Source of the DNA: Candidatus Micrarchaeota archaeon
GTDB lineage: Archaea; Micrarchaeota; Micrarchaeia; Micrarchaeales; CABMGC01
Reading direction: 5' to 3'
Length of the DNA stretch: 64,000 nucleotides
Assembly: GCA_021818925.1 (NCBI GenBank)
Contig: JAKASU010000001.1
Span: forward strand, 295,972 to 359,971
Every line of letters starts with the position of its first letter. The first letter of the stretch is position 1. Made by a program: the position numbers and the translations under genes. This document shows, one piece after another, positions 22,105-38,585 of the stretch. Below the pieces are notes generated by a model. That model was not told the origin of the DNA. It saw only the letters and a program-made list of their open reading frames with translations, and ran no database searches.

Positions 22105-22836
22105 ATGCTTGATCTCGAGGCCGAAAATAAACGTTATTCCTATGCGCTCTACTCCCTCTCCGCGGTAGTGGCCATTGCTAGCCTGATCTCGGGAAATGCA
22201 TATTTTGCCGTCCTTAGCGCGATTTTACTGCTTCTGTCCGCAGTCTACTTCAATTCAGGCCACATCGTAAACAACTTCCTGATTAAGCACAACATGGTTA
22301 TCGAAACTTACAATGGCTACAGACTCAGCGAAGGGCTTTCTGCAGCAGTGAAGAGAATAGGAAACGAATATTTTGCCGTTTCCTGCAGTGTGATCACAAA
22401 TCCTTCCGAAGGGCACGATGGCGAACACATAGCCGCGCTTATTAGAAACGCAGACTGCCCGTTTGAGTTCAGCATCGGCCTGAAAAGCGTGGACAGCGGG
22501 AGGCTTCTCGACAAGCTTGAGGAGAGGAGGCGGCTAAAGGAGATACAAATAGCACGTGGCGATCAGAAGAAGTACGACAAGGTAAATGAGCTAAGACGGG
22601 AACTCGCACTGATTGAAAGCGAGATGAGAAGCGTAAGGGACGGAAAAATGCTTGCGATAGCAGTTAGGTTGAAGACGTTCGGGAGGTCTGTAAGCGAGTT
22701 CGAGGCTGCCAGGGAAGCTGCAAAGAATGCGGAGCGGATTGCGAGCGCGTTCTCAAACGCTTTGGGTTTTGAGCACGAGATACTGAAAGGCGAAAAATTG
22801 CTGGAGTTGTTGGAAATAGAACGTGAATCTACATGA
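22105..22836 (+). CDS. 2-TM anchored soluble-domain protein (VirB3/VirB4-N-like position)
   Basis: Hairpin TM (YALYSLSAVVAIASLISGNAYFAVLSAILLLLSAVYF), then a domain with CPFEFSIGLKSVDSGRLLDKLEERRRLKEIQI. This is homologous by eye to FPFRFNIISVAEDVQKYRDELEGRRGVLEVQL in 61460-62284. Confidence 0.55.
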   Translation: MLDLEAENKRYSYALYSLSAVVAIASLISGNAYFAVLSAILLLLSAVYFNSGHIVNNFLIKHNMVIETYNGYRLSEGLSAAVKRIGNEYFAVSCSVITNPSEGHDGEHIAALIRNADCPFEFSIGLKSVDSGRLLDKLEERRRLKEIQIARGDQKKYDKVNELRRELALIESEMRSVRDGKMLAIAVRLKTFGRSVSEFEAAREAAKNAERIASAFSNALGFEHEILKGEKLLELLEIEREST

Positions 22837-23894
22837 GTAGGGCACTTGCAAGCTGGGAATCCGCGTCTGACCTGATCAGGTTTCCGGTTTTTGATATCCA
22901 GAATGAAGCACAGGTATTTTCCGGGGCAGGAAAATGCGTACTTGTGGGCATGATGCACAATCTTCCATTCTTCCTCGACCTTGATGCGGCGGTAAATCCT
23001 CATGTGTTTATATGCGGCATTACTGGAAGCGGCAAGACGTACCTGATGAAGAACCTCATGCTTAAACTGGCCCTCTTCTCAGACGCCGAGATATTGCTGA
23101 TTGATTTCACGGGAGAGTATGAGGCGTTCGCAAAGACAACCTCGCTTGTGCGTTATTCAAACCTTAAGGGCGCAGGGGATGAAAAGACAAAAACTAAGCT
23201 TGCAGACGAGATACTGAATCAAGCACTCGAGAGGATGAGGCACGAAGATTTGGGTAGGAAGCGAGTGTTTGTGATGCTTGACGAAGCTTGGAAGCTTCTT
23301 GGGAGCAGCAAACCGCTGATTACGCTCCTGCGAGAAGGCCGAAAGTACGGGTACGGCTTGCTGTTCTCATCGCAACTCATAGAGGACGTAGACATAGCCA
23401 TGCTTTCGAACGTGGCCACCGTATTCGTTTTCAGACTGCAAAACAAGCAAGGGCTTAACAAATTGGCTGGAAACTATGGTCTGAGGCAGCGGCAGGTGGA
23501 GCTTATCCAGGGGTTGGGGGTGGGCAGTTGCGCAGTACTGCAAATGCAAAAGTCCGGAAAGCGAAGCTTTTTCCATATCGAAAAAGTCCACGGCATGGAA
23601 GCGGACGAAACTATCAAGCTAAAGAATGGTGCCAAAATGCAAATAGAAATCACAAGAAGAAAGTTTGAGGAGACTGTAGGAAGCGTATGCCCAAAAGATG
23701 TCGTATCTGCCGCAATTGCGATGTCTGAGCGTGAAGGATATGTGGATCTCGCTTTTCTCATAGATTTGTTTCTAAAGAACGGCACAGACAGCAGAACCGT
23801 TCTTGCCACGTTGCGAAAGTTAGGAATAGATGACGCATCTGCAGCAGAGTCTTTCGCGACAGTGCTGTCTCAGGCAGGCAAAACAAAAGTGTAG
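22833..23894 (+). CDS. VirB4/TraC-class (FtsK-HerA superfamily) ATPase, short form
   Basis: Walker A GITGSGKTYL, Walker B VFVMLDEAWKLL (the DEAW typical of VirB4), REGRKYGYGLLFSSQ. Start overlaps the upstream stop (ATGA). Confidence 0.75.
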   Translation: MSRALASWESASDLIRFPVFDIQNEAQVFSGAGKCVLVGMMHNLPFFLDLDAAVNPHVFICGITGSGKTYLMKNLMLKLALFSDAEILLIDFTGEYEAFAKTTSLVRYSNLKGAGDEKTKTKLADEILNQALERMRHEDLGRKRVFVMLDEAWKLLGSSKPLITLLREGRKYGYGLLFSSQLIEDVDIAMLSNVATVFVFRLQNKQGLNKLAGNYGLRQRQVELIQGLGVGSCAVLQMQKSGKRSFFHIEKVHGMEADETIKLKNGAKMQIEITRRKFEETVGSVCPKDVVSAAIAMSEREGYVDLAFLIDLFLKNGTDSRTVLATLRKLGIDDASAAESFATVLSQAGKTKV

Positions 23895-25601: not shown

Positions 25602-27161
25602 CTATCTCCAGAGCAGGTTATAGGACAGGCACTGAGCCGAGAGGATGTTGCTGCTCACCGTCTGGTTGTAGTTAGAAGGGGTGAGCGCGTTGAAGAGCAG
25701 CGAGTAGAACCAGTCGTAGCTCATGCACGAGGCGCTGTACTTCGGAAGGTCCACGGCCGGAATAACTAGGTACGTGCCGCTGATGACCTCTGACGAGTTG
25801 GAGATTGAGAGAGCCAGGTTGGTGTTGTACACCAGGAACTCGGTGTTGTTGGAGATCAGGTCGATCACCTGGTCCTCCGCACCCCTGGCATTGAAGAACC
25901 TCCGTTCGCCAAGAACCCGGTTGTTCTGCGACAGCCCCTCTAGGGTGTTGCTGTTCGGCCCGCTCATTATCAGCAGAAGCGCGTTGGTGGAGTTTATCGT
26001 GTTGTTTGTCAGAGTTGCGAATATGCTGGTTGCATTAGAGTTTGCTATCACCAGGTAGATGAACTTGCCTTTGGTCAGGACGCCCTGTACCGCTGCGGCG
26101 GTCTGGTTGTTGCTGTAGTTGAACTGCTCCACATGCTGGAGTGCCATGGGCGAGATCGCAAGCGCCGTCGAATAGTTGAACGTGATGAGCAGGTAGATTA
26201 TGCTAAAGGCGAACGCGGCCGCTATGGGAAGCACGTTGACTTTCGTGCTGCGCGCCCTACTCCTGGCTCTCGAGGCCCTCGCTATACCGAGCCCGAAGAA
26301 CCTTGAGATCAGGATCATCACCACTATCACTGCATAGAACAGAATAACGCCTATGAAGTTGTGGATCAGCAGCGCGGTGGCGTTGGGGCCGTAATCCAGC
26401 CACACCATCGATATGCCAAGCATCCTGGCGATATTGAGCAGGAAGAGAAGTAATATTCCTGCAGATACCCACTTTGCCTTGTCGCGCATCTTGCCGTTGA
26501 AGAAGAACGCGAGTGGAATCAGGAACAACGCCAGCGCCACGAATATGCCAAGGCTCACGCACGTCTGCCCTATGCCTATCGAGTAGCCGTTTGCGCTGAT
26601 CGTTATCGGCGCTGAGTACTGCACCGCTGCCACGAACGGCTTCAGTAGGCCGTAGACTATGAGCGTATTGAGCTGCACGAATGCTCCGGACTGTAGAAGC
26701 AGAGGAAGCAACACCGCTGGAGAAGCGAGAAGCGAGTAGGCGATCGCGGCCCTGAAGCGCCTCACGTTCTCCGTGCCGAAGGTCAGGGACACGAGTGCGA
26801 AGAGGGCAAGCGGCATGAGCAGCATGTCTATCCTGAAGCTGATGAAGAAGATAGAGAAGTAGAGACGCAGTACGATGGCCAGCACGATGAAGAGCGCGAA
26901 CGCCGCTGCGCCGAAGATCGCGCTCCTCTTGTTTACTTTCGGCTCGGGCCTTGACTTGAGCGAGAACAGCAGGAACAGCGGGAGCATGAGGAGGGGCACT
27001 ACCACGTACGTTGAGGGGTCTGCATCGCTTACCGTGGCCGAGGTTATGTACAACGACGTGGAAAGCGTGATGATTGTTGCGGCAACAAGGAGCACGGCGG
27101 CGATGTTCCTGTTGTAGCGCATTGTATCATCATTGTCCTCAGCCGATATAGACCTCATCAA
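25602..27161 (-). CDS. archaeosortase/exosortase-family membrane protein with extra C-terminal extracytoplasmic domain
   Basis: Polytopic protein with the ordered Cys...Arg...His triad in TM context: IGQTCVSLGIF, then (about 45 aa) LLNIARMLGI, then (about 22 aa) LIHNFIGVILF. A C-terminal NxS/T-rich domain of about 190 aa follows a further TM. Confidence 0.5.
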   Translation of the reverse strand: MMRSISAEDNDDTMRYNRNIAAVLLVAATIITLSTSLYITSATVSDADPSTYVVVPLLMLPLFLLFSLKSRPEPKVNKRSAIFGAAAFALFIVLAIVLRLYFSIFFISFRIDMLLMPLALFALVSLTFGTENVRRFRAAIAYSLLASPAVLLPLLLQSGAFVQLNTLIVYGLLKPFVAAVQYSAPITISANGYSIGIGQTCVSLGIFVALALFLIPLAFFFNGKMRDKAKWVSAGILLLFLLNIARMLGISMVWLDYGPNATALLIHNFIGVILFYAVIVVMILISRFFGLGIARASRARSRARSTKVNVLPIAAAFAFSIIYLLITFNYSTALAISPMALQHVEQFNYSNNQTAAAVQGVLTKGKFIYLVIANSNATSIFATLTNNTINSTNALLLIMSGPNSNTLEGLSQNNRVLGERRFFNARGAEDQVIDLISNNTEFLVYNTNLALSISNSSEVISGTYLVIPAVDLPKYSASCMSYDWFYSLLFNALTPSNYNQTVSSNILSAQCLSYNLLWR

Positions 27162-27241
27162 ATTTCAGCAGTTACTCTGTTCTTCACAGGACACGCTAAT
27201 AAGGAAATCAGCATTATATAAACGTATTGCGGATTGAGAGC

Positions 27242-27682
27242 ATGGAAAGGAGGAGGTTCAGGTACCTTCCGCACACGGCAGACATCGCGTTCGTTGCATA
27301 CGGCGACAGTTTCAAGGCGCTGATTGAGAACTCGGCGCTGGCAACCATAGGGCTAATGTTCGACACGAAGGCCATAAAGAATGAGAAGGGCACGGTGAAG
27401 ACTGCGAGAATAACTGAGAGGGCGCGCAGCAGGGAGGACGCGCTGTGGTTCATCCTGCAGGACATAGTCTCGAAAGTTGACCAGAAGAAGCTTAACGCTT
27501 TCTCCTTCAAGGTAAACCGCCTGAGCGAAAAGGAAGACGCGATAACGATACGCGGCTGCATCTTCTACAAGCGCGTGAAAAGGTACGTGGCGCTGCTGGA
27601 CGTGAAGGCGGTGACGCCCCACACGCTTGAGGTTAAGCGTTCGGGAAGGGGATATAGGGCGCACGTCCTTGTTGACGTCTAG
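27242..27682 (+). CDS. archease (RtcB tRNA-ligase cofactor)
   Basis: MERRRFRYLPHTADIAFVAYGDSFKALIENSALA...VKAVTPHTLEV. HTAD(I/V) N-terminal signature and typical size. The track start at 27227 is an alternative. Confidence 0.8.
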   Translation: MERRRFRYLPHTADIAFVAYGDSFKALIENSALATIGLMFDTKAIKNEKGTVKTARITERARSREDALWFILQDIVSKVDQKKLNAFSFKVNRLSEKEDAITIRGCIFYKRVKRYVALLDVKAVTPHTLEVKRSGRGYRAHVLVDV

Positions 27683-28111: not shown

Positions 28112-28155
28112 AAGGAGCTGCGAGCAACAGGTTTTGCTTTCTTCGCGAATAGCAG

Positions 28156-28226
28156 AGCCAGGAGAGGGAGTCGAACCCTCCTTTACCGCTCTGCAGGCGG
28201 TCGCATAGCCGATCTGCCATCCTGGC
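28156..28226 (-). tRNA. tRNA-Cys (anticodon GCA)
   Basis: GCCAGGA-UG-GCAG..AUGC-G-ACCGC-CUGCAGA-GCGGU-AAAG-GAGGG-UUCGACU-CCCUC-UCCUGGC-U. Folded by hand, 71 nt, with a G13:A22 mismatch. Confidence 0.9.
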
Positions 28227-28276
28227 GAATGTGTATTTAATCCTTATCAGGGGAATATTTTAAAGGGAAAGGTTCC

Positions 28277-29443
28277 ATGCCCGAGTTATTTGAATCGATG
28301 CCAAAGGAGTTCGTCTCAAGCACCTCGTTCTACGATTACAAGACGCCGGTGACCGAGACGCTAGACAAGGTGAGGAAGCAGGGGGCCGTCGTGGTGCTGC
28401 GAGACAGGGAGTACTACGGCGTTGTCGACGACAGATCGCTGTTCAGGAACCGCACCCTGAAGCCGCTAAGCTTCTCCAAGAGCTTCTCTGTGGGCAAGCT
28501 TGCCAGAAAACTGCCGGTCCTCGATTCCGAGACCTCGCTCGGCATGCTCATAGGCTACTTCCACGACTTCTCTGCCAAGGCGCTTCCGTACCAGGAGGGA
28601 AACAGGATAACAGGCGTTGTGAAGCGAAGCGTAGTCGTCAGCACGATACTGTCGCTGCACATGCTTTCCAAGGCGAAGGTATCAGACATCATGTCGTCTC
28701 CTGTGATAGGCATAGACAGCAAGGCCAACATCGCTCAGGCTATGAGCACGATGTCGAAAAACAACATAGCTAGGCTTGTCGTCCTGGACGGGAGGGAGAG
28801 GCTTCTGGGACTGCTCTCCTTGCGTGACATATCTGACACGCTCACGAAGCCGCAGGAGAAGCTTCCGGAGAGGAAGTCGTACACATTCTCGCCTTCGAAC
28901 ATATCGGTGGACAGCATGATGCAGTCGCCCGTCTTAACCATTGAATTTGACAGGCAGGCAGAGGAGGCGGCGAAGCAGCTGCTCGAGAAGCACGTGTCAT
29001 CGCTGGTGGTCACACGCAACTCCAAGCCCATAGGCATCGTTTCGGTGAGGGACGTCATAGAGAGCGCTGCAGCCACCACCGCGAAGACGCAGAGCAGGGT
29101 CATCGTCTCGGGGCTCGACGAGAGCACGAGGGAGTACGAGCAGGACCTGCGCGACGAGATCAACAGGATGGTCTCGAAGATAGACAGGTTCGAGCACACT
29201 GACGTGGACTACATCTCGGTGAACGTGAAGAGGCACAGGGAGAGGAACTATGAGATGCACGCTAGGCTCGCGCTTCGAAGGCGCGGAGTTGTCTTCGCGC
29301 ACGCCTCGGGCTACTCGCTCGAGAGCACGCTCTCGGCGCTGCTCGCAAGCGTATACAAGCGCGTGCGCGAGAGGAAGGAGAGCTTCCTCAGCGGCAGGAG
29401 GCACGCGGAAAGGAGGTATGGGGAAGAAGAGGAAGAGGAGTAG
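28277..29443 (+). CDS. CBS-domain protein (two CBS pairs) fused to a C-terminal HPF/RaiA (S30AE)-like domain
   Basis: Repeated CBS-like units (e.g. VSDIMSSPVIGIDSKANIAQAMSTMSKNNIARLVVLDG, VDSMMQSPVLTIEFDRQAEEAAKQLLEKHVSSLVVT). The C-terminal ~100 aa, VIVSGLDESTREYEQDLRDEINRMVSKIDRFEHTDVDYISVNVKRH..YEMHARLALRRRGVVFAHASGYSLESTLSALLASVYKRVRERKE plus an EEEEEE tail, is collinear with the YfiA/HPF pattern. Confidence 0.6.
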   Translation: MPELFESMPKEFVSSTSFYDYKTPVTETLDKVRKQGAVVVLRDREYYGVVDDRSLFRNRTLKPLSFSKSFSVGKLARKLPVLDSETSLGMLIGYFHDFSAKALPYQEGNRITGVVKRSVVVSTILSLHMLSKAKVSDIMSSPVIGIDSKANIAQAMSTMSKNNIARLVVLDGRERLLGLLSLRDISDTLTKPQEKLPERKSYTFSPSNISVDSMMQSPVLTIEFDRQAEEAAKQLLEKHVSSLVVTRNSKPIGIVSVRDVIESAAATTAKTQSRVIVSGLDESTREYEQDLRDEINRMVSKIDRFEHTDVDYISVNVKRHRERNYEMHARLALRRRGVVFAHASGYSLESTLSALLASVYKRVRERKESFLSGRRHAERRYGEEEEEE

Positions 29444-29900
29444 GATGAAGCTGCAGTCGAGTTTCGAGTTGCTGGTAACGCTAGCGTTCGGTCTCGCGAT
29501 ACTGCTCCCTCTGGTCATAATCGCTTTCATACAGCTGGCGGGGGCGAACGCAAACCTCTCTTCGATAGAGTCGCAGCAGGCAGCGAGCAAGCTGGCGAGC
29601 GTGGCGACGCTGATCGGCAGCCAGGGGCCGCCCGCGAAGCAGCTCGTGCAGATACAGGTGCCGCCGAACGTGAGGTTCATCTACGTGGGCAACGTCAACA
29701 ACACCGTGGGCCATGAGATAATCTTCGTGATCACGTCCCCGTCGGGGCTCAGCTACATTACCTCTTACACGCCGGTGAACGTAAGCGGCAGCCTGGGGGG
29801 CATAACCTCTACCGGAGCGTATCTCGTGAACGTCACAGCGACCTCGTCGTGCCCCAGCAACAACCAGGAGCCTTGCGTGTACATGACGCCGAAGGTATAG
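29418..29900 (+). CDS. prepilin-like protein (class III signal peptide)
   Basis: GGAGG at 29412-29416 precedes ATG 29418: MGKKRKRSRMKL|QSSFELLVTLAFGLAILLPLVIIAF. ATG 29445 is an alternative start. The long track start at 29250 lies inside the CBS gene and is unlikely. Confidence 0.65.
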   Translation: MGKKRKRSRMKLQSSFELLVTLAFGLAILLPLVIIAFIQLAGANANLSSIESQQAASKLASVATLIGSQGPPAKQLVQIQVPPNVRFIYVGNVNNTVGHEIIFVITSPSGLSYITSYTPVNVSGSLGGITSTGAYLVNVTATSSCPSNNQEPCVYMTPKV

Positions 29901-29901
29901 G

Positions 29902-32900
29902 ATGCGCACAATGAAGCTTCAGATCGCACTGGAATACATGATCATATTCACATTCGTGCTCGTCGTGTTCCTCTTCCTCTTTGCGCTCGTGGCAAGCCAG
30001 CGTGCGCAGACATCAAGCAGCCAGGTGTACTCGCAGGAACAGCTCATAGCTCAAAGCGTTGCTACACAGATAGACACGGCCCTACGGGCTGGAAACGGCT
30101 ACACGGCGAGGGTGCCGGTGACTGGAGCGATAGGCACGCTGGCATACCAGCTCCTAATTACAAAGAACGGAGGGGTGATAGTCAACGCCACCGTGGGCAA
30201 CCAGGCGCTGCAGGCGTTCGCATTCAGCACAGCGAGGAACGTAGTGTCAAGCAGTTCCTACCTTCAGGCAAATACATTCTACTACAACCTGCCCATAGCG
30301 AACGGCACGCTTGTCATACAGAACTCGTTCGGGACGATATGCGTTGATTACTACTCCTGCCCGAACTCGAGCACCCAGGCCACGAACGTCAGCCTGTCGA
30401 GCCAGGTGGTGCACGCTGCGCAGTTCAACGGAGCGAGCAGCAAGGTAACTATGGGTGCTTTGGGTACAACTAATGTTATTTCTATTACAGCATGGGTCTA
30501 CTTTACTAGTTTCCCTACGGCTCCTGTCACTGCAGGCATAGCGGGGATTGGTTCTAGTGGGGCGACTGGCGACGGATTTGACCTCGAAATCTGTGGTGCA
30601 GGTTATGTCAATGTTCACATACAGAGTCAGGGGAGTCAATGCGCAACAGCGGTACCTCAAATTAGCCTGAATACTTGGGAGTTTGTAGCCGCAACAGAAA
30701 CAAGTGGCACTGTCACAGTCTACGTGGGAACAACAAGCGGAGTATATGCGACAGGGGTAGCAACAAGCAGGACGAGCCAACCGTTGGCAATTGGTTACGA
30801 CCCGCTATGTTGTGCGAATGGCTATGCTAATGCACGAATCGCAAACGTCCAAATTTATAATAGCGCCCTGTCTGCATCGCAGGTTCAGCAGCTCTACCAA
30901 GAGGGCATAACCGGAAATCCGATAGCTCCAGCCAACGTAGTCGGCTGGTGGCTGCTCAACGGAAACGCGAATGACTACAGCGGACAGGGAAACAATGGAG
31001 TTATTAACGGTCCGTTGCTGTTTCCAGCAGTGGCAGAATTGTTTGCAAAAGTCACGAATCAAGTAGGATATGCTATCTCAAACGCCCTCGTGGGGTTCAC
31101 GACGACGCTAGGTGTGCTCAACGGGAACGCGATTCCTGCAAATCAAGTCTACACAAACTACACAAACGCCAACGGCATCGCGGTCGCGTTCCTCAACCAG
31201 CAAGGCAACAACGGCCAGGCGCTGGTGAAGGCAACAGCTTACAATGGAAATACCGCCCTTACCGCCAATCTGGTCGGCTGGTGGCCTATGAATCTCGGGC
31301 AGGGAAACACTACCTTTGACCTGAGCGGGAACGGGAATGCTGGCTCTATCGAAGGCGGGGCCGGATGGAGCAATCCCAATTACGTTGCTGGCTTTAATGG
31401 AAACACTAGCTATGTAAGAACAAACAATGCCCTATCTACTTCAACGAGCACACTAACTGTTGGCGTATGGGTATACCCGACCGCGAGCGGAGGGAACAGG
31501 GGCATAGTAGGACAGGGAGACTTTGGCACCGATTACTGGAATCTGAAAACCTCAGGTACAAAGTATGACTTTGTTATATACGGGATAAAGGACAATACCT
31601 TTGGCACCTTGGTGCTAAACAAATGGTCATTCCTCACTGCAACATACAACGGTGCAGTTGTCAATCTGTACGTAAACGGTGTACAGACAGCAAGCTACTC
31701 GGAGAGCGCGACTCTTGTCACATCGAACAGTCTCTACTTCGGCTACACTCCTGGCTCTGACATCCCTCCTCTCTACTTCGGCGGAAACATGGCCAACGTA
31801 CAGGTGTATAACTCTGTTCTTTCACAGCAACAGATATCGCAGCTTTATCAAGAGGGCATCTCCGGCCCTCCGGTCGGAAACATGGCCCTGGACGGCTGGT
31901 GGCCGCTCAACGGCAACGCGAACGACTACAGCGGAAACGGGTTCAACGGGACGATTTACGGGAACCTCAGATTCTCATCATCGCCTACCGCTACAGATGG
32001 AGGGAATAACGCCACCGGTGTTATTGCCGCCAGCTTCAACGGAGTCGCAGACATAAGTGTCCCTGCTGCAACATCATTGAACGCAAGCAGCATAGCGGTG
32101 TCTGCGTGGGTCAACCCCTATGCCTCCGGAGACCAGGCGATCATCTCCAAGTCTAACACGTGCGGAGGTGGGATAGATAACGGCTGGGTCCTTGAGCTGA
32201 TAAACAACTATCCTTCGGTGTGGATATACGGAGTTACATCCGGGTGGGTAAGCAGCAGCACACTAGCAGTTGCCACAAATGCGCTATCGGATGTAGGCTT
32301 CACATACGCTTCCGGACGCCTTACTTTCTACGTAAATGGCCAGAACTCCACCGTCACCACGACAACCTCCAACGATCTGCCGCTAAACGACGTCAACCTT
32401 CTCATTGGAAACCAGGGCGCATGCAACCTCTTCCACGGCAACATCTCGAATGTGCAGATGTACAATACAGCACTCACCTCTAGGCAGATGCAGCAGGTAT
32501 ATGGCATGGGCCAGGCAGGATTGCCGCTTGCCAATTCAAGTCTGGTGGCTTGGTGGCCGCTCAACGGCAACTCCAACGATTACAGCGGAAAGGGGAACAA
32601 TGGAACGGCGTACAATGTAATTTACTCTGCGCAGCAGGCGACGCTACCGAATGCGCCAGTGGTTCTCTCAGGGTCAGGGATAGGCTTAAATGGCGAAAAC
32701 GGCTACATGAATGTGCCAGCTTCTGGCTCGATAGACTCATGGAGCACGTTTACAATCGGTGCGTGGGTATATTTCAGGTCTCAGGGATTTGAGCATATAG
32801 TAGCAGAGAGACCGGTTTCGGGCCCATACAATTTCGATTTATGGATGGGTGCTACGGGGTACAAGCTCAGGCTGGGCATATATGCTGGAGGAGGGCAGAT

Positions 32901-33225
32901 TTATATGACGGACGCGCAGCCGGGAACAACAATGCAACCAGGAACCTGGTACTACGTCGTTGGAGAATACGATGGCACCGATCTTTACACATACCTAAAC
33001 GGCGCCCTCGACTACACTCTCGGCGCAAGCGGAGCGACAAACCAGGGAAGTGAGGCGCTTACGGTAGGCAGCGCGGCGTATGACGGAGGTCACTACTGCA
33101 ACTGCGCAATAAGCAACGTGCAACTCTATAACTCTGCGCTTTCGAGCAACCAGATAGAGCAGTTGTACCTTTCGCAGACGCCTCCAAGCGCGAGCGCTGT
33201 GATACCGCTGAGTTGGTTCCCATGA
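29902..33225 (+). CDS. giant prepilin-like surface protein with four LamG (concanavalin A-like lectin) modules
   Basis: N-terminus MRTMKL|QIALEYMIIFTFVLVVFLFLFAL. Four modules end in (A/S)NVQ(I/V/M/L)YN(S/T)AL..Q(V/I/M)QQ(L/V)Y and are linked by WWPLNGNANDYSG.GNNG, the Laminin_G_3-type signature. Confidence 0.75.
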   Translation: MRTMKLQIALEYMIIFTFVLVVFLFLFALVASQRAQTSSSQVYSQEQLIAQSVATQIDTALRAGNGYTARVPVTGAIGTLAYQLLITKNGGVIVNATVGNQALQAFAFSTARNVVSSSSYLQANTFYYNLPIANGTLVIQNSFGTICVDYYSCPNSSTQATNVSLSSQVVHAAQFNGASSKVTMGALGTTNVISITAWVYFTSFPTAPVTAGIAGIGSSGATGDGFDLEICGAGYVNVHIQSQGSQCATAVPQISLNTWEFVAATETSGTVTVYVGTTSGVYATGVATSRTSQPLAIGYDPLCCANGYANARIANVQIYNSALSASQVQQLYQEGITGNPIAPANVVGWWLLNGNANDYSGQGNNGVINGPLLFPAVAELFAKVTNQVGYAISNALVGFTTTLGVLNGNAIPANQVYTNYTNANGIAVAFLNQQGNNGQALVKATAYNGNTALTANLVGWWPMNLGQGNTTFDLSGNGNAGSIEGGAGWSNPNYVAGFNGNTSYVRTNNALSTSTSTLTVGVWVYPTASGGNRGIVGQGDFGTDYWNLKTSGTKYDFVIYGIKDNTFGTLVLNKWSFLTATYNGAVVNLYVNGVQTASYSESATLVTSNSLYFGYTPGSDIPPLYFGGNMANVQVYNSVLSQQQISQLYQEGISGPPVGNMALDGWWPLNGNANDYSGNGFNGTIYGNLRFSSSPTATDGGNNATGVIAASFNGVADISVPAATSLNASSIAVSAWVNPYASGDQAIISKSNTCGGGIDNGWVLELINNYPSVWIYGVTSGWVSSSTLAVATNALSDVGFTYASGRLTFYVNGQNSTVTTTTSNDLPLNDVNLLIGNQGACNLFHGNISNVQMYNTALTSRQMQQVYGMGQAGLPLANSSLVAWWPLNGNSNDYSGKGNNGTAYNVIYSAQQATLPNAPVVLSGSGIGLNGENGYMNVPASGSIDSWSTFTIGAWVYFRSQGFEHIVAERPVSGPYNFDLWMGATGYKLRLGIYAGGGQIYMTDAQPGTTMQPGTWYYVVGEYDGTDLYTYLNGALDYTLGASGATNQGSEALTVGSAAYDGGHYCNCAISNVQLYNSALSSNQIEQLYLSQTPPSASAVIPLSWFP
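30943..30983 (+). repeat. LamG inter-module linker DNA repeat (copy a)
   Basis: ggctggtggctgctcaacggaaacgcgaatgactacagcgg, with 4 mismatches to the copy at 31894. Confidence 0.7.
31894..31934 (+). repeat. LamG inter-module linker DNA repeat (copy b)
   Basis: ggctggtggccgctcaacggcaacgcgaacgactacagcgg. Confidence 0.75.
32548..32588 (+). repeat. LamG inter-module linker DNA repeat (copy c)
   Basis: gcttggtggccgctcaacggcaactccaacgattacagcgg. Confidence 0.7.
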
Positions 33226-33761
33226 AGGCACAGTTCTGGTCGTTCGATGTCATCTTCGCCATGATCATATTCGGATCGGCGCTGATACTCCTGACGTTCG
33301 TCTGGGTGAACATCAGCAGCCAGTACGACACCGCGTACAGCTTCGGACTGGAGACCATGCAGGCTCAGCTGCAGAGCCTTCAGAGCAGGATACTCTCACA
33401 GGGCGTACCTTCGGACTGGAACTCTGCGGTGAATATCACGAACACAGGCACATGGTCCAACGTGAGCGTCGGCCTCGGTACGGGAGCGGGAAGCGCGCTG
33501 TCGATGAACAAGATCGCCACTCTCGCGGCCATGTCAAACTACAACACAATCACTTACCAGTCCACCAAGCAGCTGCTAGGGGTGGGCTACGACTGGTACA
33601 TTGCTATAAACTACAGCAATTCGACTCTTGCCGCGGGGCTTTACCCCTACACAAGGGATCCCTATGCGATTCAGGTGGCGAGGCAGTCTGCTGTGCTGAA
33701 CGGCGTGCCAGTGAGCGTGCAGATAATACTCTGGACTAACAAGAGCTTCGGTGTTAGCTGA
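33213..33761 (+). CDS. prepilin-like protein (class III signal peptide)
   Basis: MVPMKA|QFWSFDVIFAMIIFGSALILLTFVWV. 182 aa, overlaps the upstream gene by 13 nt. Confidence 0.65.
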   Translation: MVPMKAQFWSFDVIFAMIIFGSALILLTFVWVNISSQYDTAYSFGLETMQAQLQSLQSRILSQGVPSDWNSAVNITNTGTWSNVSVGLGTGAGSALSMNKIATLAAMSNYNTITYQSTKQLLGVGYDWYIAINYSNSTLAAGLYPYTRDPYAIQVARQSAVLNGVPVSVQIILWTNKSFGVS

Positions 33762-35932
33762 TGAAAGCGATAGTGTTCACGATGGATGCGATATTCTCGC
33801 TAGTCATAACCATGGTCGGCATATCCATACTCCTCTTCTTCCAATTTTACAACCAGTCTGCATACAATCTGCACTACTCCAACGCACAGACCATATTCGC
33901 CAATCTCGCCTCGACAAGCGTGGACTCGGTGCGGAACAGCAGCGCAATCGCGAGGTCGCTCTCGAACCAGTACATGGGAGCGAACGAAACGTGGCCGATG
34001 TTCATGAACGGTCAGTTCTCGAACAGCAGCAACCCGATAGGGCCCCTGTATCCGATATTGGAGTATACGTTCAGCCCCGGCAATACGATAATGACGGGCA
34101 TCGTAGCTGGTTATGGAAACATCTATTTTGCTGCAAACTCCATTCTCTACGCCGTCAACGCGACAACCAACAGGACGGTCTGGACCACGAACACGATCTC
34201 CGACGTGGTCAGCAACCCTGCTCTTTACTACGGCTCGATCTTCTACGCTAATGCGACAAACCTCACCGCAGCGAACGCGGGCACAAATACCATCGTGTGG
34301 AGCACCAACTCTATAAAGAGTACGTCAATCACCACGCCGCTGCTCGTATACGACAACCTCGTGATATTCGGGAGCAGCAACAATAAGATAAACGCGTACT
34401 TCGTGAACAACGGCACAAGCGCCTGGTCAGAGAGCATAGGCGCAACGCCCGTATCTATGACCATCGCAGGCGGCAGTCTGGTTATCAAGACAGACACGAA
34501 CGTCATCTATGTTGTAGCGTATTCTGGATCGCTGCCTCCGGTGACGCTGACAACCATCACGTTCTCGTCAGGCATTTTGCCTACAGGGATGGCGTACGGG
34601 GCCAACATAATATATTTAGGCAGCGGCACAACCGCGAACGCGATACTTGTAAACGGAACGACAATTAGCGGATTCCCTCTTGGTGAAGTTTCCACTGTCT
34701 CCGGAGTTGCCACCTACAAGAATTATACCGCATACCAGACGGGCAGTACGGTCACTGTTGTTTCGCCTACCGGCGCCACTGACTGGCTCGCTTCGGTTCC
34801 CTCGTACTTCGGTGCCAACGTGGTCAACGCCACTCCTGTGGTTTCTGGTCAGATGGTGTATACGCTTTGGGACAATGGCATAGCTGCGGAGAACCTGACA
34901 AGCGGGTCGCTGAAATGGTTTGCGCGCGTGTCTGGCGCACCGTCATACTCTTACATGACGCTCGCCTACGGCAGGATCTACATAGAGGTCAACAACCGCA
35001 TCTACGCCTATGGCTCTTGCTACTCGCCGGTGCACGCGACGCTGCTCTACGCTTTGGCCACGATGTCGTACAACGGTCAGGGAGGATGCGAGACAGCGCT
35101 GTTGAACAGCGTGTACCCTTCTGCAAACTACACGCTGTTTGCAAATTCACCGTCTACGAATACCATCGAGGCCGCTAGTTTCAACGGGGCAAGGGGATAC
35201 ATGATTGCTAGGAATATGGGAGCGCTGAACACTTCCTACGTGAGCGTCTCCTTCTGGGTAAACATCAGCGCATACAATCCAAGTGGGGATAGGCTCGTCA
35301 ATTACGGAGACAACGGCGGCTGCCTATCACCCACAACCTACTGTGGCTGGTTCTCGTCCCTGACAAGCTCTAACACGATACAGTTCTCCATAATGGCCAA
35401 CGGGATGGAGATTGACGCTAACGGCCCTAAGCTCAGCCTGAACAAGTGGTACATGATAACTGGGACATACAATGGAACGAGCGTGGACGTGTACGTCAAC
35501 GCAAATACGCCCTCCACGAACAGCTTCACTGGCGTAATATCCCCGGCAAGCACTAACATCAACCTGACCATAGGGGCCGGAAGGCCGAGCGATTCGAGAT
35601 ACTTCACGGGCAACATGGCAAACGTGCAGATCTACAGCCAGCCGCTCGGAGTGCAGCAGATAGCCGCGCTCTACAGGGGAGGCGCGGCAGGAGTCCCGGT
35701 AAAGGGCTACGGCTTGGTGTCGTGGTATCCGCTTAGGGGCGACACGAACGACTACGCGGGCTTCAACACCGGATTCGCAGTTGGCAGCATGAAGTTCGTC
35801 ACTAAGACATACGCCTCGCCTGCGTTCTCCAACGCTTACGAGGTGTCGCGAGCCAGCACCCTGCTGCCTGTGCTTAACTACACGAGCGGAGTCGGCAACA
35901 CAATAAGCGTTGGCATATATTCGTGGGAATGA
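33761..35932 (+). CDS. prepilin-like surface protein with PQQ-like beta-propeller and C-terminal LamG module
   Basis: MKA|IVFTMDAIFSLVITMVGISILLF. Repeated blades (LYAVNATTNRTVWT, LTAANAGTNTIVWS, INAYFVNNGTSAWS, IAAENLTSGSLKWF, IYAYG). LamG end NMANVQIYSQPLGVQQIAALY plus WYPLRGDTNDYAG. Confidence 0.6.
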   Translation: MKAIVFTMDAIFSLVITMVGISILLFFQFYNQSAYNLHYSNAQTIFANLASTSVDSVRNSSAIARSLSNQYMGANETWPMFMNGQFSNSSNPIGPLYPILEYTFSPGNTIMTGIVAGYGNIYFAANSILYAVNATTNRTVWTTNTISDVVSNPALYYGSIFYANATNLTAANAGTNTIVWSTNSIKSTSITTPLLVYDNLVIFGSSNNKINAYFVNNGTSAWSESIGATPVSMTIAGGSLVIKTDTNVIYVVAYSGSLPPVTLTTITFSSGILPTGMAYGANIIYLGSGTTANAILVNGTTISGFPLGEVSTVSGVATYKNYTAYQTGSTVTVVSPTGATDWLASVPSYFGANVVNATPVVSGQMVYTLWDNGIAAENLTSGSLKWFARVSGAPSYSYMTLAYGRIYIEVNNRIYAYGSCYSPVHATLLYALATMSYNGQGGCETALLNSVYPSANYTLFANSPSTNTIEAASFNGARGYMIARNMGALNTSYVSVSFWVNISAYNPSGDRLVNYGDNGGCLSPTTYCGWFSSLTSSNTIQFSIMANGMEIDANGPKLSLNKWYMITGTYNGTSVDVYVNANTPSTNSFTGVISPASTNINLTIGAGRPSDSRYFTGNMANVQIYSQPLGVQQIAALYRGGAAGVPVKGYGLVSWYPLRGDTNDYAGFNTGFAVGSMKFVTKTYASPAFSNAYEVSRASTLLPVLNYTSGVGNTISVGIYSWE

Positions 35933-35936
35933 AGGC

Positions 35937-38585
35937 ATGAGGTTCGGAAACAGCAAGGGACAGCTGATGACGCTGATAATGCTAGTCGTATTCATACTCA
36001 TGCTTGCCGAACTCTTCGCCTTCGCCCTCATTAACATAAGCTCTAATAGCATCTCGCAGTCGCTGACGCTGACATCCTCTTCGGCAAACTACGGCAACCT
36101 TTTCAGGCTTAGCGCAAATAATTTTGCGTATGCAAGCCTGAGCAGAGCGATAGCAACGCTCGCAAACTACGAATCCACGCCAGCATACAGGAAGGGCAAC
36201 TTCATCACAAACACAAGTCTCTATCTGTCGTATCTTGTGACGAACGGCGTTCTGCCCAACGATACATCAGGCTACCCGCAGAACGCGATGGGCAACCTGA
36301 CGCTGAAACTTTACAACATTTCCGTGGCGAACGTTATAGGCTTTGGATCGCAAGCGGTGACAATAAATGAGACGGAGCCGATCGTGTTCCAGACCGACCC
36401 ATACCACATAAGAGTGGCATATACAGAGAGCATAGCTGTCAACACCTCGGGCAACGATTACAAGTATACCATACCTGTGAACGTGTCCCTTCCTCTGAAC
36501 GGCACCCCTGATCTCCTCTACTCGCAGCAGGGCATCACGAGCCAGATCAGGTTCGCAAGCATGGCAAACCTTACCTCGGCAATAGGGGGAATGGCCACAT
36601 CCGGAAACACGCTCGCATACGGCTACGGCACAGTCTACTGGCTGCCAAGCAACTCGGTCAGCGGCGCAACGTGCTCCTCCATACCGGGCGCAATCTCCTC
36701 CGCGTCAGTCAGCGGAAACATTGTGCTTGCCACATACAACGCGATAGGCCTTGAGGGATGCGAGAACAACTACGCGGGGCTGATAGCCTACATTGCGCCA
36801 ACGACCCTGCCGACCGTTGCCTACCTCATATACCCAAGCTCGTCAAACTTCCTGCAGCTCATACCTACAGGTACGCGTGTGCTTGTATACGGTCCTATGC
36901 TGGAAACCTTGAACATCGAAGGCCTGAGGAATGCGATAACGAACGGCTACTACTTCGCGTCGCCGTTCACTCCCTCGTACCTTGACAGGGCCGATGGCAA
37001 CTTTAACACGCAGTCGCCGAACGGCATATTCACCTTCTCGAACTACAACACGCAGGCAGCGTATTTCAATGGCGGTGGCCATATTACGACGCCGCTGCTT
37101 TCGGGGCTGACCACAAACACAATTACAGTAATGGCGTGGTCTGATAGTTATGGACCTACGGGTGGTAGACAAGAGATTATAGCTCATGAGTCCCAGACGG
37201 GCTGTGACAATGGGGGAGTGGGAGGCAGCGGTTTCATACTTTCTGCACCTAATGAGGGAAACGACATCATAGCATGGTTCTGCCTTTATAATGCCGGGTG
37301 GTCGTGGTACAGCGCGGAGGTACCGTTTTCAAACTATGGATACAACAAACAGTTGTTAATAGCAGGCACATGGGACGGTAGTAACATCAAGCTCTATGTT
37401 AATGGAGCACTTGTTGCGACAACAGCGTGTTCTGGATGCGTTTTTGTAGACCCAACAACTGACGGGCCCGGAATAGGTGCCAACGACGGTGGCGTGTACA
37501 CGTTCAACGGAGAGATATCAAACGCCCAGATTTATAGTAAATCGCTATCTGCACAACAGATAATGAAAATTTACCAAGAAGGCATATCTGCTTTGCCGAT
37601 AAGCAACAATAGGTTGGCAGGCTGGTGGCCGCTCGACGGCAACGCGAACGACTACAGCGGTCAGGGAAACAATGGAGCCGCGACGGGCGTTACATACACA
37701 CTGCTCCAGAACTACAGCCGCGATAGTATACTAAACACTCCTGTGCCAACGAAGCTCTCGCCAATACCCGGAATACTGTCGTGCACCTCTACTGGCAACT
37801 GCGCCTCTAACACGCTGCCGAACCTGTATCTCGGAACAATGCCGCTGGAGGTGCAGAGCGGGCACATGCAGACAGCGAACTTAAACGGGCAGAGCAGCAG
37901 TATAGAGGTTCCTTATGCGTCTGACATTGCGCTGACCGGCAATTTTGCGATAGGATGGTGGTTCTCCAGCTCTTTGTCCCCAAGCACAACATACGACCAA
38001 GAGATGGTTACCTCTAGGTGCCAGACAGATACAACATTTGACATGCAGCTTGAGAATACGGTATTACACGGTGACATAGGAACTGGGACGGGAACATGGC
38101 TGTCTACTGGCGTCAATTATGCATTTACTCCATTGCAAAACACGTGGTACTTTATCGAAGTCGTATTTGCAAACACCGGGTGGTCCATATTCCTTAACGG
38201 AAAAAACGTCTCATATGGCACGTATACAGGCAATCCAAGCCTCTTAGACAGCAACGACAACCTTAACATCGGCGGGGCCTGCGGCGCGAACCTCTTTGAT
38301 GGAAAAATTGCGAACATGCAGTTGTATAACACGGCCATTGGAGCAAACGAGATCTATACGCTCTACCAGGAGGGCATCGGCGGCGCGCCGATAAATCTGC
38401 AGAACCTCGTCGGCTGGTGGCCGCTCGACGGCAACGCCAACGACTACAGCGGCTTCACAAATAACGGGGTTGCGACAGCGGTGACGTATCCCTACTTTTC
38501 AGGCACCTACAACGCGCCAGGGCTCTCGACCATCGCGACCTCGGCGAACGAGTGGCAGGCGCTCGGGCTGGCGACGCCACAGTAG
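35937..38585 (+). CDS. giant prepilin-like surface protein with two LamG modules
   Basis: MRFGNSKG|QLMTLIMLVVFILMLAELFAF (ATG 35937, 5 nt after the upstream stop). LamG ends ISNAQIYSKSLSAQQIMKIYQEGI and IANMQLYNTAIGANEIYTLYQEGI. Two WWPLDGNANDYSG linkers. Confidence 0.7.
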   Translation: MRFGNSKGQLMTLIMLVVFILMLAELFAFALINISSNSISQSLTLTSSSANYGNLFRLSANNFAYASLSRAIATLANYESTPAYRKGNFITNTSLYLSYLVTNGVLPNDTSGYPQNAMGNLTLKLYNISVANVIGFGSQAVTINETEPIVFQTDPYHIRVAYTESIAVNTSGNDYKYTIPVNVSLPLNGTPDLLYSQQGITSQIRFASMANLTSAIGGMATSGNTLAYGYGTVYWLPSNSVSGATCSSIPGAISSASVSGNIVLATYNAIGLEGCENNYAGLIAYIAPTTLPTVAYLIYPSSSNFLQLIPTGTRVLVYGPMLETLNIEGLRNAITNGYYFASPFTPSYLDRADGNFNTQSPNGIFTFSNYNTQAAYFNGGGHITTPLLSGLTTNTITVMAWSDSYGPTGGRQEIIAHESQTGCDNGGVGGSGFILSAPNEGNDIIAWFCLYNAGWSWYSAEVPFSNYGYNKQLLIAGTWDGSNIKLYVNGALVATTACSGCVFVDPTTDGPGIGANDGGVYTFNGEISNAQIYSKSLSAQQIMKIYQEGISALPISNNRLAGWWPLDGNANDYSGQGNNGAATGVTYTLLQNYSRDSILNTPVPTKLSPIPGILSCTSTGNCASNTLPNLYLGTMPLEVQSGHMQTANLNGQSSSIEVPYASDIALTGNFAIGWWFSSSLSPSTTYDQEMVTSRCQTDTTFDMQLENTVLHGDIGTGTGTWLSTGVNYAFTPLQNTWYFIEVVFANTGWSIFLNGKNVSYGTYTGNPSLLDSNDNLNIGGACGANLFDGKIANMQLYNTAIGANEIYTLYQEGIGGAPINLQNLVGWWPLDGNANDYSGFTNNGVATAVTYPYFSGTYNAPGLSTIATSANEWQALGLATPQ
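37621..37661 (+). repeat. LamG inter-module linker DNA repeat (copy d, in a different gene)
   Basis: ggctggtggccgctcgacggcaacgcgaacgactacagcgg, with 1 mismatch in 41 nt to copy b. Confidence 0.75.
38412..38452 (+). repeat. LamG inter-module linker DNA repeat (copy e)
   Basis: ggctggtggccgctcgacggcaacgccaacgactacagcgg, with 1 mismatch to copy d. Confidence 0.75.

Follow-up and report, generated by a model that had tools for sequence, protein, structure and literature searches.

Two recently described archaeal ribosome hibernation factors, HibA and AHA, are members of one family under different names. HibA, reported from Pyrococcus abyssi (PAB/Q9UYR4) by Madru et al. (Nat Commun 2026, PMC13324472; preprint October 2025, where it was called 'Hib'), joins four CBS units (residues 1-269) to an HPF/RaiA-like domain (residues 270-392) and is present in 47% of archaeal genomes. 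AHA is the Haloferax volcanii protein HVO_2384, characterized by cryo-electron microscopy (cryo-EM) and deletion (Souza et al., bioRxiv 2026, PMC12934967). Here we describe a gene of this kind in a stretch of 64,000 nucleotides (nt) from the Candidatus Micrarchaeota archaeon contig JAKASU010000001.1, hereafter the window, in whose numbering all positions of the gene and its neighbors are given. Its 388-amino-acid product is very probably a Micrarchaeota orthologue of HibA/AHA, with the ribosomal role assigned by homology.

The evidence on HibA comes from cryo-EM, in vitro translation inhibition and deletion in T. barophilus (PMC13324472). Its C-terminal domain occupies the channel for mRNA and tRNA in the 30S subunit, and its basic tail, RYAKRF.E, contacts h23, uS7, uS11 and eS28 where the mRNA leaves (PMC13324472). 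The CBS module is found at three positions on the 50S subunit, namely the peptidyl-transferase centre (PTC), uL5 and the L1 stalk, and a 'PTC loop' (residues 190-207) mimics tRNA CCA ends; taken alone, the N-terminal module hardly inhibits translation at all, according to the source data of the same study (PMC13324472). Dissociation constants for HibA-CM are 12 µM for adenosine monophosphate (AMP), 65 µM for the diphosphate (ADP) and 113 µM for the triphosphate (ATP), with the binding site between CBS3 and CBS4, and addition of AMP or ATP left the conformational landscape of HibA on ribosomes largely unchanged in vitro (PMC13324472). The structures are deposited as PDB 9SR9-9SRF and 9T7H, of which 9SR9 is HibA-ATP according to the data-availability statement (PMC13324472). 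For AHA, two AMP molecules were seen at the CBS3-CBS4 junction and the deletion has a stationary-phase survival phenotype (PMC12934967).

Other ribosome-binding CBS proteins, known as Sri, ARC and Dri, for the most part do not occur in the same genomes as HibA/AHA (PMC13324472, PMC12934967). The published survey database includes 130 Micrarchaeota genomes. An earlier note on this DNA, made from the sequence alone, had recognized the fusion of a CBS sensor to a hibernation domain and had called archaeal hibernation factors poorly charted. The second of these statements is outdated, as the fusion is that of HibA/AHA (PMC13324472, PMC12934967). Structures, genetics, nucleotide binding and phyletic spread were all published in 2025-2026 under these names, and the locus by itself therefore opens no new question.

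A CBS-tetrad and HPF fusion in Micrarchaeota

The gene, which we call hibA below, is a real open reading frame (ORF) that runs from ATG to TAG on the forward strand at exactly the coordinates that had been proposed for it (28277-29443), and it is conserved in homologues. Translation from a second start, ATG 28298, would yield 381 amino acids; this start is used in a JGI protein of 100% identity, from a metagenome contig of 102.7 kb. M1 and P9 are nearly invariant across the family alignment, and the start at 28277 is therefore preferred. Among public proteins there are 107 homologues, down to E = 1.8e-14, most of them full-length (370-395 amino acids). Those with a named source belong to Candidatus Micrarchaeota or Micrarchaeia, with a few from Marsarchaeota, and come mostly from metagenome-assembled genomes. 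Two close relatives already carry the JGI name 'CBS domain-containing protein/ribosome-associated translation inhibitor RaiA'. A scan of the 64-kb window with the family hidden Markov model found no paralogue, whether a second CBS tetrad or a second HPF domain.

The link to HibA is one of full-length homology. The best sequence match in the PDB is 9sr9_H, the P. abyssi HibA chain, in one collinear stretch: a single-sequence search aligns residues 19-361 with HibA 17-366 at E = 1.4e-16, and the family profile aligns residues 17-369 with HibA 15-378 at E = 1.1e-41. A solved CBS protein of 406 amino acids with the same two-module layout, 9l96_a, follows at 1.7e-41 with the family profile; we found no mention of PDB 9l96 in the searchable literature. 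HibA and the Micrarchaeota protein also agree in their proportions. HibA has 392 residues to our 388, its CBS module ends at residue 269 and ours at 268, its HPF domain begins at 270 and ours at about 273, the loop of CBS3 lies in the same place, and the C-terminal domain is basic in both. HibA comes from a free-living hyperthermophile, whereas the Micrarchaeota gene belongs to a DPANN symbiont and is known here from sequence.

That the N-terminal 270 or so residues hold four CBS-like units, as the earlier note had proposed, is borne out by a Pfam CBS match (E = 2.8e-27), by the AlphaFold2 model and by structural comparison. The whole-protein model (mean predicted local distance difference test, pLDDT, 81) contains four CBS units and the C-terminal domain. 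The units lie at about residues 10-57 (CBS1), 72-126 (CBS2), 133-189 (CBS3) and 211-268 (CBS4). Foldseek matched the whole model to CBS-tetrad proteins only, namely SriA-D (as SriC/D and SriA/B), Dri, MJ1225, SSO3205 and AMPK-gamma, and the tetrad alignments to Sri, Dri, MJ1225 and AMPK-gamma span 266-307 columns. AMPK-gamma and MJ1225 share the four-CBS disc (TMt ~0.64-0.69) and adenine-nucleotide sites in the CBS3/CBS4 region, but they serve as regulatory subunits of kinases or as sensors on their own, and they lack a ribosome-binding domain and the CBS3 loop insertion. A profile of the N-terminal module alone, searched against solved structures, separates these neighbors further: the divergent CBS1-2 half is matched solely by HibA and 9l96_a, while the matches of Sri, Dri, MJ1225 and AMPK-gamma are confined to the canonical CBS3-4 half. 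The CBS modules of HibA are described as a monophyletic clade, HibA-CM, sister to CM-5/SriA-like modules, and this pattern of matches gives indirect support to a place of our module in it.

Two features of the CBS module bear on its possible function. A long loop at the end of CBS3 aligns by hmmalign, which we used for all residue mapping to HibA, with the HibA PTC loop and is two residues shorter. The two loops have P192, K195, E198 and P206 in common (K195 is Arg in 56 of 60 relatives), and pLDDT falls below 50 at residues 192-201 in the AlphaFold2 model. The ribose-phosphate motif G-h-h-S/T-x-x-D is intact in CBS3 (G178-LLSLR-D184) and CBS4 (G253-IVSVR-D259) and is missing from CBS1 (GVVDDRS) and CBS2 (GVVKRSV). 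Across the family both glycines, G178 and G253, are invariant and the aspartates D184 and D259 are conserved in at least 90% of sequences. HibA has these same CBS3 and CBS4 motifs at the site of its AMP/ATP binding, and because they are intact here we suggest that adenine nucleotides bind at CBS3/CBS4 of the Micrarchaeota protein as well, AMP best. AHA is likewise similar by description, with an AMPK-gamma-like tetrad joined to an HPF domain, a CBS3 loop (loop 3) that reaches into the PTC and AMP sites between CBS3 and CBS4; it has been seen with two bound AMP molecules, whereas the Micrarchaeota protein is known from its sequence and a model.

The C-terminal domain is an HPF/RaiA-like domain, as had been proposed from residue patterns, and four independent approaches converge on this. 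PF02482 (Ribosomal_S30AE; Sigma54 modulation / S30EA) matches residues 288-368 over profile positions 11-85 of 88 (E = 6.3e-4, 20.9 bits). When 60 family members were scanned singly, PF02482 was found in 38 of them with E <= 0.01 (best E, 1.7e-9). With our sequence below the family threshold, as discussed below, and so many of its relatives matching, the domain is a divergent archaeal branch of the HPF/RaiA superfamily rather than a canonical Pfam member. A profile built from the ~120 C-terminal residues of 36 relatives found E. coli HPF first in the PDB (1.3e-5), followed by V. cholerae YhbH (4.5e-5) and then by HPF/pY proteins of Listeria, Borrelia, S. aureus and Thermus. Against a library of 1.8 billion proteins the same profile returned 225 cluster representatives, most of them 350-400 amino acids long with the domain at about residues 255-380, and a minority standalone at 100-145 amino acids; this is the split between HibA and 'HPF/RaiA-like' proteins known from the literature. 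One hit of that search was rejected. P0154, a protein of 2175 amino acids with 11 matching stretches (2.9e-17), is eukaryotic and mucin-like, with repeats that look SEA-like by eye, and is a false positive whose score arises because repeat scores add up. Small alpha/beta domains can evidently cross-match when they are repeated.

Structure prediction gives the domain the β-α-β-β-β-α order of the HPF fold, with strands at residues 275-278, 310-319, 325-333 and 337-345 and helices at 285-303 and 348-387, and the domain modelled alone (pLDDT 76) has the same topology. The 18 leading Foldseek matches to the isolated model belong without exception to HPF, RaiA/YfiA, protein Y or plastid PSRP1/pY (template-modelling score 0.54-0.82, root-mean-square deviation 2.3-3.5 Å), including T. 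thermophilus YfiA, Listeria HPF and spinach pY; all of these hibernation factors bind in the decoding region of the 30S subunit. The first matches outside this group are to double-stranded RNA-binding domain and LptE folds, with much weaker scores. The earlier note had singled out an ACT-like or other ferredoxin-like fold as the finding that would speak against its reading; the leading ranks are all HPF-type instead, and there is no ACT domain among the 50 matches listed. Like the bacterial factors, to which it is related by detectable sequence similarity as well as by predicted fold, the domain has a basic K-x-K stretch in its last helix, within which K367 is invariant, and its isoelectric point is about 10. 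Bacterial HPF, RaiA (YfiA) and plastid pY, in contrast, are standalone (~95-115 amino acids) or carry a C-terminal dimerization domain (long HPF), and they have no N-terminal CBS tetrad. The β2-β3 hairpin exceeds that of E. coli HPF by about 3 residues, and the terminal helix, which AHA has in a longer form than E. coli HPF, spans 40 residues here.

Proposed action, divergence and competing explanations

By homology to HibA we infer that the protein would bind ribosomes, at comparable sites, and would serve in hibernation. [quoted passage not shown] Because one polypeptide would hold both subunits, the idle 70S ribosome would be kept assembled with tRNA and mRNA binding blocked, and ribosomes would be protected in starvation or stress. 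A coupling of energy-charge sensing to ribosome silencing, which the earlier note had put forward, is plausible, though nucleotide control of ribosome binding or release is unproven even for HibA. Even very small DPANN genomes keep the two-module archaeal hibernation factor, in keeping with the view in the literature that ribosome silencing of the HPF type is ancient and almost universal. The locus also illustrates that the CBS-HPF fusion can be recognized from raw sequence, and it supplies lineage details for structure-function work in a shorter decoding-centre hairpin, an acidic tail and a tight coupling to a pilin-like gene.

Several observations weigh against a simple transfer of HibA function to the Micrarchaeota protein. 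Only about 22% of residues are identical to those of P. abyssi HibA (78 of 348 aligned positions). Within the family, 70S binding, a block of the A, P and E sites and of the mRNA channel, and the preservation of ribosomes in stationary phase are known solely from the proteins of P. abyssi, T. barophilus and H. volcanii (PMC13324472, PMC12934967). The PF02482 score of 20.9 bits lies under the gathering cut-off of 23.7. With the contact list taken from the publication, 11 of the 44 aligned C-terminal contact residues of HibA are identical and 19 similar, compared with 19 identical and 43 similar among the 102 aligned positions of the whole C-terminal domain. Ribosome-contact residues are thus not enriched for conservation (11/44 vs 19/102), and contact conservation is unusable as support. 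Individual equivalents of rRNA-contacting residues are nonetheless conserved in the family, as with R336, which aligns with our R330 (Arg in 50 of 60 relatives), G342 with G337 (56 of 60) and F288 with Y287 (56 of 60); further contact equivalents are K324 with R323, R366 with K361 and R299 with R297. HibA has archaea-specific insertions in its HPF domain that reach uS12, h44 and uS19. Its hairpin insertion FRGVH (residues 325-329), in contact with h44 A1461 and uS12, is missing from our protein, leaving the hairpin 5 residues shorter, and Y195 of HibA, which stacks on a PTC adenine, is replaced by Leu. The extreme tail is acidic in the Micrarchaeota protein and basic in HibA, in a region where the alignment of the two is not secure. 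In addition, the C-terminal-only profile missed the HibA C-terminal domain in the PDB, with 9l96_a at E = 1, so that the link to HibA rests on the full-length alignment together with the shared fold. HibA entries are also absent among the Foldseek matches, from a library with a cut-off of 2026-04-08; they were probably released later.

Might the protein instead be a generic CBS regulator, similar to the CBS-tetrad factor HhpR, whose C-terminal domain is an unrelated ACT- or ferredoxin-like effector with no ribosomal role? Several homologues do carry the JGI label 'predicted transcriptional regulator', HhpR and PrdR are weakly matched in their CBS regions by NCBIfam, and the PF02482 score is sub-threshold. 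We consider this very unlikely all the same, as the NCBIfam matches cover the CBS repeats only and score far under their cut-offs, the protein has no DNA-binding domain, and the fold comparison (HPF-type at the first 18 ranks, no ACT domain among the 50 matches listed), the ranking of HPFs at the head of the domain-profile search and the collinear full-length match to HibA all speak against it. A different CBS-tetrad hibernation system, either standalone SriA-D or ARC-A/P or the double-tetrad Dri, would plug the ribosome through CBS units and 'occlusion elements'. These proteins carry homologous ribosome-binding tetrads and are the closest structural neighbors of the N-terminal module: the full-length model finds its top Foldseek matches among Sri and Dri chains, and with the N-terminal-only profile 9zni_6, from a SriC/SriD-ribosome entry, outranks HibA by summed score. 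Those matches, however, cover the CBS tetrad only, and mostly the CBS3-4 half matched twice. Sri and ARC proteins have 270-340 amino acids and no reported HPF-type domain, the ARC proteins carrying an 'occlusion element' instead, Dri consists of two tetrads in 655 amino acids, and the positions taken on the ribosome are other than those of HibA. One tetrad with a demonstrable HPF domain is the defining architecture of HibA, and membership in the Sri/ARC/Dri group is so improbable that it can almost be set aside.

A subtler alternative accepts homology to HibA and supposes that its action has diverged in the reduced, symbiotic Micrarchaeota, with the protein bound to the small subunit only, or held at one of HibA's three large-subunit positions, or tied to the neighboring cluster of pilin-like and LamG genes and to host attachment. 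The shorter hairpin, the unconserved PTC-loop aromatic and the acidic tail would all fit such a change. So would the genomic context: in each of the five loci that we compared (the window, L001, and four others, L002 to L005) hibA is directly adjoined or overlapped by a pilin-like gene, across HibA identities of 37-100%, and 28 pairs of HibA and pilin-like homologues have a longest contig of the same size, ten of these contigs being no longer than 4.2 kb. Against this, the whole clade has kept both modules and the CBS3 loop in conserved form, compact small genomes often keep gene order without any functional link, translational coupling is read from spacing and Shine-Dalgarno (SD)-like motifs only, and there is no evidence of a ribosomal role for the pilin-like protein. 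Diverged action is in our judgment improbable, if less so than the two preceding alternatives, and we favor the reading of the gene as a Micrarchaeota HibA/AHA orthologue.

Gene neighborhood and the junction with the pilin-like gene

Features of the window around hibA, by position.
Feature	Position	Strand	Basis and remarks
HerA/FtsK-like P-loop ATPase	22833-23894	+	DUF87 at 8.3e-14; followed by small ORFs without Pfam match
Exosortase/archaeosortase-type membrane protein	25602-27161	-	519 amino acids, polytopic; PF09721 at 5.2e-10
Archease	27227-27682	+	PF01951 at 3.2e-23; RtcB tRNA ligase cofactor
tRNA-Cys(GCA)	28155-28226	-	Divergent from hibA, 50 nt between
Intergenic region, 50 nt	28227-28276	+	tRNA-Cys gene to hibA; read from sequence
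hibA/AHA-type gene	28277-29443	+	388 amino acids; stop TAG 29441-29443; ORF list, homologues, collinear HibA match
CBS tetrad, residues 1-268	28277-29080	+	Pfam CBS, AlphaFold2 secondary structure, Foldseek
Ribose-phosphate motifs G-h-h-S/T-x-x-D, CBS3 and CBS4	28808-29053	+	Sequence, family conservation
Long loop at end of CBS3, residues ~190-210, TKPQEKLPERKSYTFSPSNIS	28844-28906	+	Equivalent of HibA PTC loop / AHA loop 3
HPF/RaiA-like domain, residues ~273-372	29093-29392	+	PF02482, domain profile, AlphaFold2, Foldseek
C-terminal tail, GRRHAERRYGEEEEEE	29393-29440	+	Helix extension, R-R-Y motif, hexa-Glu run
GAGGAG, SD-like	29435-29440	+	Last two hibA Glu codons; 4 nt upstream of ATG 29445
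Pilin-like gene	29445-29900	+	151 amino acids (160 from 29418); class III signal peptide
Giant surface proteins, LamG/concanavalin-like repeats	29902-33225, 33761-35932, 35910-38585	+	

The pilin-like gene directly follows hibA in all five loci, with a gap or overlap of -26 to +1 nt. Its product has about 151-163 amino acids and no Pfam match, and has a conserved N-terminal K[AL]-QSS[FL]E[LM]L stretch followed by a hydrophobic helix, with two conserved Cys. All 330 of its homologues are annotated as hypothetical, and those with a named source are from Micrarchaeota or Marsarchaeota. In the related loci the gene lies at L002:7142-7609, L003:6131-6586, L004:6139-6630 and L005:6145-6603, and over the same genome pairs it is 55-93% identical, compared with 37-74% for HibA.

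Two claims of the earlier note about the junction of hibA with this gene stood only in part. One was that the run EEEEEE at the end of the protein resembles the end of YfiA. The E. coli RaiA end is acidic, and the run is present here, in a tail that reads RRYGEEEEEE. The R-R-Y motif is common to about half of the family, but six Glu in a row are found in this sequence alone, with 0-4 acidic residues among the last six in relatives, and a YfiA-like acidic end is therefore not a feature of the family. The other claim placed the pilin start at ATG 29418 behind a GGAGG. Both elements are present, and 29418 is the start that JGI calls; the GGAGG, however, ends just 1 nt before that ATG. The GAGGAG in the last Glu codons stands 4 nt from ATG 29445, which for this reason is the favored start; it lies 1 nt after the hibA stop and just ahead of the point where the conserved mature part of the pilin-like protein sets in with its N-terminus. 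The purine tract at 29412-29447, which encodes EEEEEE in hibA, reads KKRKRS in the frame starting at 29418.

We infer that the acidic end of hibA may in part be an embedded SD element. Four of the five loci have a GAGGAG, GAGGAA or GGTGA placed 4-8 nt ahead of an ATG beside the hibA stop. In L002 this SD-preceded ATG (~7154) differs from the start called by NCBI (7142), and in L003 the overlap of hibA and the pilin-like gene is ATGA, with a weak GTGG upstream. Such SD-like motifs at the 3' end of hibA suggest translational coupling with the pilin-like gene. A bolder proposal would be that in Micrarchaeota hibA and the clade-specific pilin-like gene form a conserved coupled operon, followed by the LamG proteins, in which hibA Glu codons serve as the SD element and the protein's tail has been shaped by the overlap and not by contacts with the ribosome. 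We rate this as an unlikely though not far-fetched scenario. Were it true, the symbiont would co-regulate ribosome hibernation with host attachment, for example by entering dormancy when detached.

On its other side hibA is separated from a tRNA-Cys gene by the 50-nt intergenic region, in which AT-rich TATA-like boxes at 28234-28241 (TATTTAAT) and 28255-28264 (ATATTTTAAA) form a putative promoter and a purine tract (GGGAAAGG) precedes the hibA ATG. These 50 nt are nearly identical in L002, and AT-rich boxes and purine tracts are found in the other relatives too. The same tRNA end sequence recurs upstream of hibA in L002 and L004, and this recurrence together with the short gap makes it probable that tRNA-Cys and hibA share a compact bidirectional promoter region. 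Also upstream of hibA is a 122-amino-acid ORF without a Pfam match.

Beyond these genes the order exosortase-like, archease, hibA and pilin-like recurs in the four other Micrarchaeota loci (HibA 37-74% identical). In each of the five loci the archease gene is on the hibA strand and upstream of it, at a distance of about 0.2-1.3 kb in four and about 4 kb in L003, where it stands beyond the exosortase-like gene relative to hibA. The exosortase-like protein, syntenic in all related loci, has a C-terminal extension of about 230 amino acids rich in Asn, Ser and Thr. Downstream of the pilin-like gene the LamG cluster is syntenic in the window, L002 and L003 and absent in L004; in L005 a 944-amino-acid protein without a Pfam match and a PQQ-propeller protein are found downstream. 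Laminin_G_3 matches the 1107-amino-acid protein in four stretches (2.3e-76). One protein of the cluster also carries a PQQ-type beta-propeller, and the first has a pilin-like N-terminus (MKLQIALEYM...). The LamG-repeat proteins are possibly adhesins of the DPANN symbiont, and the HerA/FtsK-like ATPase near the pilin cluster may belong to a secretion, pilus-assembly or DNA-translocation module.

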